The notes beneath the pieces were generated by a model. It was given only the letters and a program-made list of their open reading frames with translations, was not told the origin of the DNA and did not search any database. Positions 33,245 through 38,403 of a stretch of 64,000 nucleotides of DNA are shown one piece after another. Source of the stretch: Candidatus Latescibacterota bacterium (GTDB lineage Bacteria > Latescibacterota > UBA2968 > GCA-2709665); assembly GCA_965116875.1 (NCBI GenBank), contig OZ220733.1, forward strand, positions 5,280,001 through 5,344,000. Reading direction: 5' to 3'. The position numbers and the translations under genes were made by a program. Position 1 is the stretch's first letter; each line of letters starts with the position of its first letter.

Positions 33245-33898
33245 TCAATTGCCTTCAATGGCAACAAATAGCAGCCGGTCGACCAAATCCTGGCATGAAT
33301 CATAGATCTCACAGTCCGCGCCGTCAAATCGAAACCTGTCCTGGTGCCCCCGCAATACGACAATGGGACGGCAGCCCACGGCGCGGGCCACCTCCACGTC
33401 GTGGTCCGTGTCGCCTATGAACAACGTTCCGGATGGATCGAGATCGAAATCCGCAATCAGACTGCGGCACCTCCGCTCCTTCGACGCAGCCAATCGATCG
33501 GAGAGCCCGTACACACCCTTGAATCGATCCTGAATACCGTGAATACGCACCCACGAGGCGACCATTTCTTCTTCGGCAGCCGACAGGACGAACTGATCTA
33601 CTCCATGTCTTTCAAAGAACTCGAGCGCCTCCGCGATCCCCGGATTGAGTGAACACGTTCCGATGCCAGCCTGGTATACGCTGTGGAATTCATCGGAAAT
33701 GTCTCGTTGTGCTTCCCTGTTCAGATCGAATCCGAGTTGACGGTAGTAATCGGATACGGGAAACCGGAAGATCTGTCGATGTGTCGCGTTGTCGACCGTC
33801 GGCAGTTCTCTTCTGCGCAACAGTTCGTTCATCGAGCGTGTCGCCAGTTCCACGTCGTTCAGAATGGTGCCGTTGAAGTCCCAAATGACTGATTTCAT
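33245..33898 (-). CDS. HAD-family hydrolase
   Basis: IWDFNGT, LSA, FIGDTDHD. Confidence 0.88.
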   Translation of the reverse strand: MKSVIWDFNGTILNDVELATRSMNELLRRRELPTVDNATHRQIFRFPVSDYYRQLGFDLNREAQRDISDEFHSVYQAGIGTCSLNPGIAEALEFFERHGVDQFVLSAAEEEMVASWVRIHGIQDRFKGVYGLSDRLAASKERRCRSLIADFDLDPSGTLFIGDTDHDVEVARAVGCRPIVVLRGHQDRFRFDGADCEIYDSCQDLVDRLLFVAIEGN

Positions 33899-34048
33899 TG
33901 CACTTTTGCAAATAACGCACGCCCACCAAGAATACATCCGCTCATGGAACATAATCCCCGCCAGCCGACCGCTCCAACGGGGATTCTCGTACGTACCGAT
34001 TTCAACTGAATTTGACGGACTTCATTGTCCGGACCAACGCTTCAGATG

Positions 34049-34288
34049 TCAGTCATCACCAACGTCGTCTGAATGCGCCGGATTGTTTTCTCTGGTCACC
34101 CGTATCAGGAATCGTAATGCCTCGTTAACGGAATCAGCGTCCGGAAACACTTCAGCAACATCAGGTTCCAACTGCACGACGAATCTGCCAAAGCCCTCTC
34201 GCCCCGGACCCACCTTCCTCACCCGCAGGTTCTTCAAGTCATACTCCGCCCGCATTTCATCCTGCATAGGTACCCTATCCATTTTCAA
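34049..34288 (-). CDS. BrnA-like antitoxin; no intact toxin upstream
   Basis: DEMRAEYD...LEPDVAEVFPDADSVNEALRFL. Confidence 0.75.
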   Translation of the reverse strand: MKMDRVPMQDEMRAEYDLKNLRVRKVGPGREGFGRFVVQLEPDVAEVFPDADSVNEALRFLIRVTRENNPAHSDDVGDD

Positions 34289-34367
34289 ATACGTCTCTCT
34301 TTCGCAGGGCTTTCGTCAATCCACCTAACCCACGTTCGACGCTATTCCCCCGCAAAATGAGAAGCCA

Positions 34368-34544
34368 TCATCCGGAAGCTTTGGGCTTCATGCCGTCGGC
34401 TTGCTTCGGAAACGTAAGCCTTCCTTTATGTCTCTTCTCTTTCTCGCGAAGTCGTTCTACAATCTGGCGAATATCGTGGTTGCACTCTTTGGCGATCTGC
34501 CTTCGAACCGCGTGAATTTCTTCAACGATCGGGTCCTTCCACAT
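34368..34544 (-). CDS. 58-aa antitoxin-like protein (MWKDPIVEE type), below the ORF-track cutoff
   Basis: MWKDPIVEEIHAVRRQIAKECNHDIRQIVERLREKE...; AGGAG upstream. Confidence 0.7.
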   Translation of the reverse strand: MWKDPIVEEIHAVRRQIAKECNHDIRQIVERLREKEKRHKGRLTFPKQADGMKPKASG

Positions 34545-35429
34545 GATTACGCTCCTTCAGGGACTTCCGATATTTCCTGGTCGCATTCCGCACTTAATAC
34601 ACAATGCCAATATAGATTATTGGCTCTCCCGGTGCAAGGTATTCGAGAGTTCGAAAGTTGATACCTTCAGGAATGTCGCCCGACCGACGAGTTCCAAATC
34701 AGACGCCGCTGTGGGAACGCCTGTGGTTTTGAAGGGCGTCGACGATGCACTGCTGTCCAAGAACCGCGGGATTCCTGGAGATGACGTTCGAAAAGTGGAT
34801 TCCTTTCGCGATTATGGACGGCTTTGACCTCGACAACGAAAACCGGGTTGCCATGGGTTCGCGTCTGTTGCAGGGCTTCTCATTCTGAACGGAGTCGAAG
34901 CATCGTTCGCCGCTTCCGTACCGCGCTGGAGTCGGACGTGCTGCCTCTAGGGCGTCGCCATGTGCAGATCGCGGGGGATGATCCCATGCCGCAGTAGATC
35001 CTTCGTCGGCCTGGGGCTTTCTCTACATGAGAAACTGGTCTCAGGCGAAACGGATGCGATTCCTGGACGTCGCACCCAGGCCTCCTCTGGATGACAGTGG
35101 GAAGCAACGTGCTCGGCTATCAGCCAGCATGTCATTCAGAGCGGAGCGAAGATCTGGCCGGTTCATTTCGCCAATGGTTATTGCAAGTCATGTCATTCGG
35201 AGCGTAGCGAAGAATCTCCCGTCTACTATGTTAAAAGTCAAGAGAGAACGACAATTTGTCGGCCTCAGATGCTGGGGTTACTCTGCCATTGTTCGTACCG
35301 ATGCGACGCGTTCATTCCGACACGCTCGACGAGCGTGTCGGAATGAACGAAACAGACGTCATTAAGCCTTGAATGGGTTCCCTGCCACACGACAGCAGTA
35401 GGGACCGGGCGTACGGTGTTCTCTTTTGG

Positions 35430-35637
35430 ATGGCCTCAGATGCTCGGTCAACGCTACCAGTCTACTATTCGTAGTCGCCATTTGCAGGCGCTAACATGCC
35501 ATTTATCCGGAGCCGTGCGAGAGCTGGGGGCGAGCAAACTTCATCGACGTAGTACCTGACGGTCTACAAGACGGGAGGCGCCGTCCCCCGTGCTCCACGA
35601 TCAAGAGCGGTGTGGGCGCAGGCATCTGATGTGACCG
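35430..35637 (-). ncRNA. Putative bridge/seek RNA of the IS1111-type element
   Basis: Closing stem tcagatgc/gcatctga; internal loops match the reconstructed target and the circle junction. Confidence 0.7.
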
Positions 35638-35642
35638 GGTGT

Positions 35643-36713
35643 TCAGCCGGCAAAGAGTCCCAACTGATAGGGCTCTCCATTCAGCAAGATCCTGCGCATG
35701 CGGCAAAGCAGGGATCTGGCAACTCCGACGATGGCGTGTTTACCACCGGCACGAACCCTGATGCGTTCATATTTTTCCTGCATCGCGGGATCTTTCTCGA
35801 TCAGGCGCCAGGCCGCCTGGATGAGTAACGCACGCACCATCGGTTTCCCCTGGCGGGTGATACGCCCGTGCCTCACATGCTCTCCCGACGAGTGCTGGCC
35901 GGGCGTCAGCCCCACGTAGGCCGCCAGCGTCCGTGCGTTTTTGAAGCGCGCCACATCCTGCAGCTCCAGGAGGATCTCCATGGCCGACAGGCATCCCACG
36001 CCCGGGATCGACGTCAGGATGGCCACGCGGTCCCGATACGCATCTGTTTCCGCAAGCTGCCACAGCATCCTCGTCTGGCGATGCACCTGCTCACACAGGT
36101 CAGCGTATTGCTCCAGCATGTTCTCGAAGCTCTCCTGCGCATACGGATCTTCCAGATGCACATCGCCAAGTGCGGTCACGAACTTGCCAGACCACCGCCC
36201 TGTCGATTCTTCGGGCATGTCGATCCCCATATACCGCAACTCGGCCTTGATCCGTAGTTGCACACGCACCCGATCCTTGATGAACTGCCGGCGGCGACGA
36301 CTCACCTGGCGGTGGGATCGCTCTTGAGGCGTTGGCACATAGATCGATGACAAGAGGTCCTTCCTCAGATAATCCGCCAGCTTGAAGCTGTCGATGCGAT
36401 CCGTCTTGACCAGGTTCCCACTCTGGCTCGGGATCAGGCTCGGCGGCGTCACACAAGCATCCACACCCATATCGACGAGAAAATCGTACAGCCCGAACCC
36501 GAAATAACCCGCTTCATACACCGCACAGATCTTCTTCGCTTCGCCGTACCGACTCAACAGCTTATCGATCGCCTCTGTTGTGCCTGCGATGCGATTGGAG
36601 AACAGTCGCAAACCATCCTCGTTGAGAATGGTGATGTGCCACTGCTTCCGATGCATGTCGATGCCCACGAAAAGATCCTTGCCCCGCCACGCTTCAACGG
36701 TATACCTTGCCAT
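35643..36713 (-). CDS. IS110-family DEDD recombinase/transposase
   Basis: VGIDMH, YEAG, KTDRID, LTSIPGVG, YVGLTP..SSG..GRITRQG. Confidence 0.95.
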   Translation of the reverse strand: MARYTVEAWRGKDLFVGIDMHRKQWHITILNEDGLRLFSNRIAGTTEAIDKLLSRYGEAKKICAVYEAGYFGFGLYDFLVDMGVDACVTPPSLIPSQSGNLVKTDRIDSFKLADYLRKDLLSSIYVPTPQERSHRQVSRRRRQFIKDRVRVQLRIKAELRYMGIDMPEESTGRWSGKFVTALGDVHLEDPYAQESFENMLEQYADLCEQVHRQTRMLWQLAETDAYRDRVAILTSIPGVGCLSAMEILLELQDVARFKNARTLAAYVGLTPGQHSSGEHVRHGRITRQGKPMVRALLIQAAWRLIEKDPAMQEKYERIRVRAGGKHAIVGVARSLLCRMRRILLNGEPYQLGLFAG

Positions 36714-37047
36714 CACGAGCCTCCTTGTGAAAGTGTTTGTTGTGGACAACGGCAAAGTATACTCTCACAAGCTGAGGCTCAACTTCATTTTAACATAGTG
36801 ACTTCTGGCTCGTACGTGTAGCATATGGCCTTCATAGACAAATTCGTGCGCGGACGCTCTGCCAGACTTTCCGCCACCTCTCTATAACATTCGGCCGAAA
36901 GTGTAAAGGCCACATTTCGCCAATGGTTGTGGGCGAATTTTCCATCCGTATATTTCGCACACTTTCGCATCTTTCGTTGGTAACCACACCCGCTTTTGGA
37001 CAGGTGTGTCGACGATGAAAGATGCATTGTAAACAGTAGGCAATAAC

Positions 37048-38403
37048 TCATCTCACTCGAATCATCAATTCGCCGAGGACCTCCAGGCCTTTCTTAAGAA
37101 TTGGTTCTTCCGTTTCGCTCACCGCTTCCGTCATCGGATCGACGGGTACGGAAGGCGTATACGCGCTTCTTGACGACCCGACGAACTCCTGAGACGCCGG
37201 GTCACCCTTCAGGGTCCCGTTGAAGATCTTCTGTCTGGTGCACTGAAATCCGATTCCTGTATTCGGCATCCGCATCGTGTAGACCGAACCCTCCAGTCCC
37301 GCCATCTTCGTTCCCACGACAGTTGCTCGATCCAGTGCGTCCAGACTGATCGTCAGACCCTCGCCCGCGCTTCCCGTCCAGCGGTTCACCAGAATCACCA
37401 GAGGTCGTTCGTACTGCCATTCTCCTCTCGGTCTCACCCGGCTTAGAAACGGCGCTCCGTTGCGAGGCACGGTTCGCTGATAGACCCGTTCCCGGTCGAT
37501 CAGGCGCCCGATGATTCCCTCGACGACCCCCGTATTGCCCCCGCCGGCTTTGCGCAGATCGAGAATCAATCCGGCAGTGTGGCGCAACGCTTCGAGTGCG
37601 ACATCGAAATCCTCCAGGAGTTGACGGCCCGTCAGGGTTCCATTGATGACGACGTATCCGATTTGGTGATCCAGAATCCGGAAATCGAGATTCGATTGGT
37701 ATTCTGATCTGTACGCGACATCAAATTGATCGGGCGGAATGGTGACCGGTCTGGTCTCGCCTCGGTCGCTGAACTCGATTATCCTGGTCTCGTTCCGATA
37801 TCCCGCCAGCACCTTTCTCAGCGTCCAACCCCTAATCTCGTCGCCGGCCTGGACAAAGGAACGCCCCATCCGCTTATGAACGGCGTCTTCGATCGGCATT
37901 CCATTGAAACGAAGGACCTCCATCCCGGGATGCAGACCGGCGGCATCGGCGGGAAATCCCGGTCGGATTCCCGTTACGATTGCCCTGCCGCCAATCCATT
38001 CCGCCCAGACGTCCGTCCGCGAAGGCGCGATGTTCGGAGAAGATGCCGTATGCGTGTTCAAATGAACGTGGTCGTCGTACAGCTCCTCCAAGACCCTCTC
38101 CAGCTGTGCGATGAATTCCGATTTCGTCGAAATCGTTCGGATCTGAGGCCGGTATATCTCTCTGACTCGATCCCAGTCGGTCCGCTTTTCGTCAAAATAC
38201 GCATAGTCCGCACGGAACGTCTCCCACAGAAAATCGAAGTCCTCTTCGTACTGTTGTGAAGTCAGGTCGTTCTGCGCGAACGCGATCGAACAACTCAGGG
38301 AATTGAACGTCAACAGCACGCAGAAGAGGAATACAAGGAGCATCGATTCCGGTCCGGTGTCATGTTCCAGGTGCGCACCCTCGATACCGCGGATCCCTTG
38401 CAC
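37048..38403 (-). CDS. S41-family peptidase with PDZ domain
   Basis: GLILDLRKAGGG, NRWTGSAGE, VVGTKMAG; true start may be 38343. Confidence 0.85.
   Translation of the reverse strand: MQGIRGIEGAHLEHDTGPESMLLVFLFCVLLTFNSLSCSIAFAQNDLTSQQYEEDFDFLWETFRADYAYFDEKRTDWDRVREIYRPQIRTISTKSEFIAQLERVLEELYDDHVHLNTHTASSPNIAPSRTDVWAEWIGGRAIVTGIRPGFPADAAGLHPGMEVLRFNGMPIEDAVHKRMGRSFVQAGDEIRGWTLRKVLAGYRNETRIIEFSDRGETRPVTIPPDQFDVAYRSEYQSNLDFRILDHQIGYVVINGTLTGRQLLEDFDVALEALRHTAGLILDLRKAGGGNTGVVEGIIGRLIDRERVYQRTVPRNGAPFLSRVRPRGEWQYERPLVILVNRWTGSAGEGLTISLDALDRATVVGTKMAGLEGSVYTMRMPNTGIGFQCTRQKIFNGTLKGDPASQEFVGSSRSAYTPSVPVDPMTEAVSETEEPILKKGLEVLGELMIRVR

Follow-up and report, generated by a model that had tools for sequence, protein, structure and literature searches.

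The window, by which we mean the whole 64,000-nucleotide stretch of DNA analysed, contains on its minus strand an insertion sequence made up of an intact transposase gene, a non-coding tail that is matched by a bridge/seek RNA covariance model (R1) and two ends that are each bordered by a dinucleotide AG (Table 1). The element shows the IS1111-group trait of a long downstream non-coding region, with 418 nt 3' of the transposase gene and 88 nt 5' of it. Judged from these sequence features, the element (36801-35225) belongs to the IS110 family, is of the IS1111 type and is intact, and the window copy may be active. The first-pass annotation had likewise read it as an intact element of a known class, and the open frame, the family models that the protein passes and the ends and empty site described below all agree with that reading. 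Among the larger neighbouring genes, one codes for an S41 peptidase (37048-38403) and another for a HAD hydrolase (33245-33952). Downstream of the element are two short open reading frames of 58 and 79 aa (34049-34544, minus strand), neither with a Pfam match above the curated cut-off.

Table 1. Features of the element, its RNA and its insertion site
Feature	Position in window	Strand	Basis or remark
Whole insertion sequence	35225..36801	-	1577 bp; limits from six-copy genome comparison and uninterrupted target repeats
Left target read by guide, GA	36805-36804	-	
Core AG (CT on plus strand), left copy	36802..36803	-	Empty versus occupied sites
Left subterminal inverted repeat, ACTATGTTAAAA	36788..36799	-	Contains -10-like TATGTT (36797-36792)
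Transposase / bridge recombinase gene, 356 aa, intact	35643..36713, including stop codon	-	Pfam, NCBIfam, IS621 alignment
Bridge/seek RNA as matched by R1	35417..35614	-	115.2 bits, E = 2.5e-30; extent is that of the model match, not of mapped RNA ends
Target-loop closing helix, 5' strand (GGGGGACGGCG)	35579..35589	-	93.3% paired, both-side change in 8/10 pairs
5' target guide, CTCCCGTCT	35569..35577	-	Pairs with sense strand of AG + ACGGGAG, 9/9
Inner hairpin of target loop	35549..35567	-	Helix 2, 83.7% paired
3' target guide, GAAG	35539..35542	-	Same letters as GA of the left flank + core AG; pairs with the opposite strand
Target-loop closing helix, 3' strand	35527..35536	-	Pairs with 35589-35579
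Donor-loop closing helix, CCGG with CTGG (35460-35457)	35507..35510	-	Helix 3, 91.8% paired
5' donor guide, TGGC, in loop strand 35506-35497	35498..35501	-	Pairs with core G + left-end TCA
Inner hairpin of donor loop	35470..35496	-	Helix 4, 94.2% paired, compensatory change in 6/8 pairs; includes AUGGCGACU
3' donor guide, AATAGTAG	35462..35469	-	Equals last right-end bases + core AG
Right end: -35-like TTGACT (35241-35236) and right inverted repeat TTTTAACATAGT (35236-35225)	35225..35241	-	
Core AG (35224-35223) and right target ACGGGAG (35222-35216)	35216..35224	-	Exact complement of 5' target guide

Transposase, ends and insertion sites

The transposase carries both domains by which the IS110 family is recognized, an N-terminal DEDD RuvC-like domain and a C-terminal Tnp domain; it matches the Pfam models PF01548 (73.1 bits, E = 2.8e-20) and PF02371 (98 bits, E = 4.1e-28) and scores 222.7 bits against the NCBIfam model NF033542 ('IS110 family RNA-guided transposase'), whose cut-off is 140. 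The IS621 and ISCro4 recombinases are its only relatives of solved structure. Similarity to the IS621 transposase (8wt6; phmmer E = 6.7e-15) falls in two partial stretches, and D19, E67, D105, D108 and S276-G277 align opposite D11, E60, D102, D105 and S241 of IS621, for which the roles that the DEDD residues and catalytic serine play have been described (PMC11208158). No variation is seen among 27 homologues at D19, E67 or D108, and almost none at D105 and S276. The GL-P----S(T)G motif of the IS1111 group is present as GLTPGQHSSG, whereas the protein departs from that group in its slightly greater length (356 aa, against the 330-350 aa given in PMC11187229) and in its distance as gauged on plasmid records: a tblastn search of 72,556 such records gave 4209 matching records, all below 60% identity, with a best identity of 39%.

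The inverted repeats are 12 bp long, within the 7-17 bp range of subterminal inverted repeats in the IS1111 group, and lie 2 bp inset at the left end and flush at the right end. Six copies of the element are present in the genome (one contig, 5.45 Mb), all with open frames and all bracketed on both sides, in transposase sense, by AG; occupied sites thus have an AG at each end, whereas empty sites have one (6/6 copies). Insertion is site-specific and duplication is limited to the 2-bp core, as in the IS110 family. At other places in this genome (for example, near C1:1790174) the target repeat is uninterrupted and reads through with a single AG, which indicates that the empty site ctcccgtCTt reconstructed in the first-pass annotation is real and that AG/CT is the crossover core. 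A joint between 35222 and 36802 that skips the element, seen in contigs of two DNA runs, was taken as a repeat copy rather than an excision product, because its shorter side amounts to 22 letters and because the flanking DNA belongs to a dispersed repeat of which uninterrupted copies are known at other positions.

Four of the copies (c2, c4, c5 and c6) are mutually 99.4-99.9% identical, pointing to recent transposition; the window copy is 88.9% identical to this subfamily and is a single copy. Copy c3 (C1:1776366-1777995) is a mosaic of two subfamilies, ~95% identical to c2 and 88.7% identical to the window copy, and its 3' target guide is altered, such that its own flank is matched at just one base besides the core. 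A 171-nt insertion (35431-35261, minus strand) separates the RNA from the right end; it is bounded by 13-nt direct repeats (35444-35432 and 35273-35261) and holds a perfect 41-nt palindrome (35349-35309). All six copies have this segment, whereas relatives lack it and the rest of the genome has no copy of it; by its appearance it is an insertion or duplication of some age that the element tolerates.

Two classes of target site are used in this genome. The window copy, c2 and c3 lie within a target-bearing dispersed repeat of ~150-200 bp, which occupies 35100-35224 and 36802-36880 in the window and recurs, for example, at C1:1776038, 1784261, 1786940, 1790174, 1792913, 3536024 and 4398699, with several copies clustered 2-8 kb apart around 1.77-1.79 Mb. 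The other class, used by c4, c5 and c6, comprises short arrays of purine-rich 7-nt units (such as GGGTAGA, GGGAAGA and CGGGAGA) that are often followed by AGAA-CCCTTGCC and that occur at ~40 places (for example, C1:764627, 1542470, 2656172 and 5275872).

The downstream RNA in homologous loci

A close homologue was found in only 1 of 100 related genomes. A single-protein query for related loci returned none, and a protein-alignment query, with one genome per species, returned 80 loci, from Latescibacterota, Ignavibacteriota, Zixibacteria, Desulfobacterales, Syntrophobacterales and others. Their transposases are 32-62% identical over the best aligned segment, and the RNA matches reported below derive from loci with transposase identity of ~45% and above. 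Comparison of boundaries in the multi-copy families gave the same arrangement in every family: left flank, AG, an element running from T/C-N-N-CTATG to ATAG-N, AG and right flank.

To build R1, we aligned ten non-coding regions with MAFFT and folded the alignment with RNAalifold. On the unfitted alignment, RNAalifold returned three helices (those closing the first and second loops and the inner hairpin of the second loop), with compensatory change in 14 of 22 pairs, and it left all guide segments unpaired. R1 gave 73 matches in 86 sources, all directly 3' of transposase homologues; in the genome studied here it gave six, one per copy of the element (6/6), with one in the window. In an alignment that is itself fitted to R1, 91.9% of cells are paired and both sides change in 18 of 26 pairs, a result equalled by none of 500 shuffles; because related sequences share ancestry, such counts overstate independence.

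The window sequence taken singly folds no more stably than shuffles over 211 nt (z = -0.29, with 81 of 200 shuffles as good) and has z = -1.72 over 421 nt; in its structure of lowest energy, some of the 5' guide is base-paired. An E-value search of Rfam 15 over 34800-37100 found no family in the non-coding tail, its only match being a sub-threshold miRNA hit (36962-37036) that lies outside the element. Two relatives have RNAs of unusual build. In one (L053:2299-2533), ~55 nt of extra sequence form a long hairpin inside the inner hairpin of the target loop, so the tip of this hairpin tolerates insertions. In the other (L034:2271-2614), a second, partial R1 match directly follows the first; it covers the donor-loop half only, and its variable guide base is C, as against T in the first match.

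Guide segments of the two loops

Much of the target loop had been drawn in the first-pass annotation and was recovered by comparison: its GGGGG/CCCCC stem forms part of the closing helix, the inner hairpin occupies the positions given for it, and GAAG stands at 35542-35539 and equals the left flank plus core. The 10-mer at 35577-35568, which that annotation had matched to the empty site, is perfectly complementary to the reconstructed site in its sense strand. When the 418-nt non-coding region was shuffled by mononucleotides 1000 times, a match of at least 10 nt to either strand of the 30-nt site arose only 6 times.

Across relatives, the mean match between 37 distinct 5' target guides and the flanks beside them is 7.78 of 9 positions, compared with 4.13 for 1330 non-cognate pairs, and a score of at least 8 is reached by 25 of the 37 cognate pairs as against 12 of the 1330 non-cognate ones. 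When 32 distinct 3' guides were scored against the left flank and AG, the means were 6.22 of 8 for cognate and 3.65 for non-cognate pairs. In these guide-flank comparisons the right ends were placed by the donor-loop 7-mer and not by the target guide. Five of the 73 R1 matches had no GAATAGNAG motif under the pattern used and were dropped (L039, L040, L041, L052 and L091), as were those with no right-end 7-mer or a short flank (L097, L036, L083, L051 and the second L034 match) and others without an upstream left-end motif. Loci L079 and L080 were considered as shortened elements and rejected as such, their true right ends being found further downstream, where they fit the guide at 8 of 9 (L079) and 6 of 9 (L080) positions. 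Complementarity per position is 94 to 65% over right-flank positions 1-7 and 96 to 57% over positions -1 to -5 of the left flank, where ~22-31% is the background level; as pairing falls to background beyond these limits, the target code comprises 5 + 2 + 7 = 14 bases. On the strength of these sequence comparisons, both target guides covary with the flanking DNA across relatives, a pattern that the first-pass annotation had suggested looking for and that is present over 37 distinct 5' guides and 32 distinct 3' guides.

The 3' target guide of the window copy is among the weakest in the clade, matching at 4 of 8 positions. As it matches only two flank bases beyond the core, the specificity that the first-pass annotation had called predictable can be read at ~11 of the 14 nominal target positions of this copy and not at the remainder.

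A natural retargeting by one base (C/G to A/T) is seen among the six copies in the genome, as is a single mismatch that is tolerated. The window copy and c3 have a guide with C (...CTCCCGTCT) and a flank ACGGGAG, and c4, c5 and c6 have a guide with A (...CTACCGTCT) and a flank ACGGTAG; c2 has the A guide in a GGGAG site, which leaves one mismatch. The guide base therefore changes from C to A together with a flank change from G to T, the match being perfect in five of the six copies and one base short in the sixth. Free 11-nt sites number 53 for GAAGACGGGAG and 15 for GAAGACGGTAG, as compared with ~2.6 expected for each, and these unoccupied sites belong to two repeat families. No perfect 14-nt site for the guides of the window copy was found in the whole genome.

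The donor loop is built like the target loop: inside a closing helix, the 5' strand (35506-35497) leads into a hairpin (35496-35470), which the 3' strand (35469-35461) follows. Sequence comparison lends its closing helix modest support: both sides change in two of the four pairs, the other two are invariant, and one position is unpaired in 11 of 52 cells. The outer GGAGC/GCTCC helix (35596-35592 with 35513-35509), which also figured in the first-pass annotation, can form in the window and overlaps the donor-loop closing helix by 2 nt, but across relatives it stands out little, the longest helix averaging 4.6 in cognate and 3.82 in non-cognate pairs.

Both strands of the donor loop follow the ends of the element. 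The 5' donor guide tracks left-end bases 1-3 in all five left-end types, with TTAC for TAA, TAAC for TTA, TGAC or TGGC for TCA, TTGC for CAA and CCAC for TGG; TGGC of the window copy has one G-T wobble, and its sister copies have TGAC. The base next to this guide, opposite core A, is complementary in a minority of relatives only. On the 3' side, the variable base N of GAATAG[N]AG equals the last right-end base in 23 of 25 guide sets (C in 11, G in 7 and T in 5), with the junction placed by the target guide alone; of 39 guide sets, 25 gave a site, and the 14 without a downstream site at one mismatch or fewer were left out of the count. AUAGUAG (35468-35462), proposed as a donor guide in the first-pass annotation, is in place within the 3' donor guide. 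Because the 5' donor guide is only 4 nt long, the evidence from donor covariation is weaker than that from the target loop. Taken together at the level of sequence, both donor guides covary with the element ends, and the second loop is predicted to read the joined ends.

A different donor loop had been drawn in the first-pass annotation, with AUGGCGACU (35481-35473) and AUAGUAG as its guides and a guuagcgc/gcguugac stem to close it. Over 54 distinct homologues, this stem is paired in 56.0% of cells, as compared with 55.8% in shuffles (241 of 500 as good), with no excess covariation, and one of its pairs is broken in c2, c4, c5 and c6. Its attraction lies in the window sequence, in which the 8-bp stem can be drawn and in which GACTAC (35476-35471) is complementary to six bases across the joined ends. 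The 5' half of the stem, however, pairs instead with GGCGACTAC in a clade-wide hairpin (94.2% paired, 6/8 compensatory), in whose loop and 3' strand AUGGCGACU lies by homology; the hairpin strand reads G[AC]GAC-CAC in relatives with differing left ends, so the likeness of AUGGCGACU to the junction is coincidental. We therefore hold this version of the donor loop to be very improbable.

It is also conceivable that the RNA is a narrow seekRNA in which only the first loop guides, the domain 35510-35457 serving as a protein-binding scaffold and the transposase recognizing the ends through the inverted repeats. This arrangement has a precedent in an 82-nt ISEc11 seekRNA with target matches only, which gave transposition (42% in the assay) and whose authors state that the binding mode of the ends is not known (PMC11187229); in the present clade, moreover, the 3' donor strand hardly varies over most of its length (GAATAG..AG is invariant), which is what a protein-binding site would show, and the 5' donor guide is just 4 nt. 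We nonetheless consider it unlikely, since the variable 3'-strand base tracks the last right-end base (23/25, with three different bases), the 4-nt 5' segment shifts with left-end positions 1-3 in five of five left-end types, both donor segments lie in unpaired strands of an internal loop that resembles the target loop, and donor-complementary loops are reported in predicted IS1111 bridge RNAs (Durrant et al., PMC11208160). The concordance of 37 guides with their flanks, the compensatory change in four helices and the finding of exactly one R1 match per element make it extremely improbable that the region is only a 3' untranslated tail with no functional RNA, its matches being due to chance or relics of targets, as the Rfam result for the non-coding tail and the ordinary stability of the single-sequence fold might suggest. 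The locus is very probably, then, an intact IS1111-type element whose 3' non-coding region encodes a two-loop bridge (seek) RNA. The two-loop, IS621-like logic with a CT core and an RNA placed downstream as in IS1111, as outlined in the first-pass annotation, is borne out by the protein, the ends and the covariation of the guides.

Proposed mechanism and relation to known systems

A sigma-70 scan of the linear element found no promoter-like sites, and the only good promoter spans the joined ends, at which TTGACT, 17 nt and TATGTT come into a promoter arrangement; among 36 distinct junctions of relatives, 29 carry TTGA[CT]N-17-TATGNT. If IS621 and ISEc11 are taken as models, the element would leave as a circle, and the joining of its ends would create the TTGACT-17-TATGTT promoter, from which the transposase gene and then the RNA behind it are predicted to be transcribed. 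A circle-junction promoter that drives the transposase and the RNA behind it has been described for known elements (PMC11187229; PMC11208158). Processing, protein binding and catalysis would likewise follow those systems. The RNA would bind the recombinase, and its first loop would read the target, with the 5' strand pairing with AG and 7 bases on one DNA strand and the 3' strand pairing with up to 5 bases and AG on the opposite strand. The second loop would read the joined ends, its 4-nt 5' guide pairing with core G and the first 3 left-end bases and its 8-nt 3' guide lying opposite the last 6 right-end bases and AG, and recombination would take place at the shared AG/CT core.

For the IS1111-type elements ISEc11, ISPa11, ISKpn4 and ISPst6, seekRNAs have been reported in short (70-100 nt) and long (145-170 nt) forms, derived from a downstream non-coding region and having a top-strand match 5' of the bottom-strand match, together with natural retargeting (Siddiquee et al. 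2024, PMC11187229). As set against that account, the element shares the DEDD transposase with GL-P----SG, the subterminal inverted repeats and the downstream non-coding region; the transposase-sense match likewise lies 5' of the other-strand match, with overlap at the insertion point, and retargeting between close relatives and a promoter formed by end joining recur. From the possible outer helix (35596) to the donor-loop stem (35457) the RNA measures 140 nt, just below the long form reported there. A second loop with donor-matching guides is readable here, one that the seekRNA account (PMC11187229) is not known to describe.

Bridge RNAs have been predicted in 93% of ISfinder IS1111 elements (Durrant et al. 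2024, PMC11208160). As in the predicted bridge RNAs of ISPa11, ISAzs32 and ISCARN28, the RNA lies in the right end and has loops complementary to target and donor (8-14 nt in those examples; PMC11208160), whereas many IS1111 orthologues in that account have donor-binding bases in a multi-loop, in place of which this clade has a simple internal loop. In IS621, each loop's 5' side pairs with the bottom strand leftwards of the CT core and with the core itself (8-9 nt), and its 3' side with the top strand, beginning at the core and continuing rightwards (4-7 nt; Durrant et al., PMC11208160). The target loop matches this description exactly when read on the CT strand, with 9 nt on the 5' side, up to 7 nt on the 3' side and a 14-nt target, and the RNA further agrees with it in having two internal loops, each with an inner hairpin, and the core in every pairing (PMC11208160); the DEDD and Ser residues and the sigma-70-like circle-junction promoter are also found in IS621 (Hiraizumi et al. 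2024, PMC11208158). Compared with IS621 as described in PMC11208160, however, the RNA gene comes after that of the transposase, transcription of the two runs the opposite way relative to the CT strand, and the donor-loop asymmetry is reversed (a 5' side of 4 nt and a 3' side of 8 nt); the element also has long inverted repeats (12 bp), and the protein is only remotely similar.

The element is a further example of the known RNA-guided IS1111-type class, whose mechanism was described in 2024, from little-studied lineages. A literature search found no paper on Latescibacter and IS110, and among the matches listed for bridge RNA, IS1111 and metagenomes, no title or abstract opening dealt with this clade. 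The clade comprises at least 37 distinct guide sets, with a target code of 5+2+7 bases and a donor code of 4+8 bases, and its two loops share one plan, that of a simple internal loop made up of a guide, a hairpin beginning GTGG and ending CCACG, and a guide. The sequence CTCCGG (35513-35507) is able to close either the target domain or the donor loop. We raise as a doubtful but conceivable extension that this compact, uniform clade of IS1111-type bridge RNAs may be undescribed and that the competing CTCCGG helices could switch the RNA between forms; if so, they would alternate a target-only form, for excision from the flanked donor, with a two-loop form, for insertion, which would explain the published short and long seekRNA species.

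The known mechanism is unchanged by this element, which provides a well-resolved natural example of an RNA-guided IS110/IS1111 recombinase in which all four guide segments are readable. For annotation, R1 marks an RNA family without an Rfam 15 match in this region, and for bridge-recombinase engineering, the clade offers a small, regular scaffold (356 aa and ~140 nt) with a short donor code.
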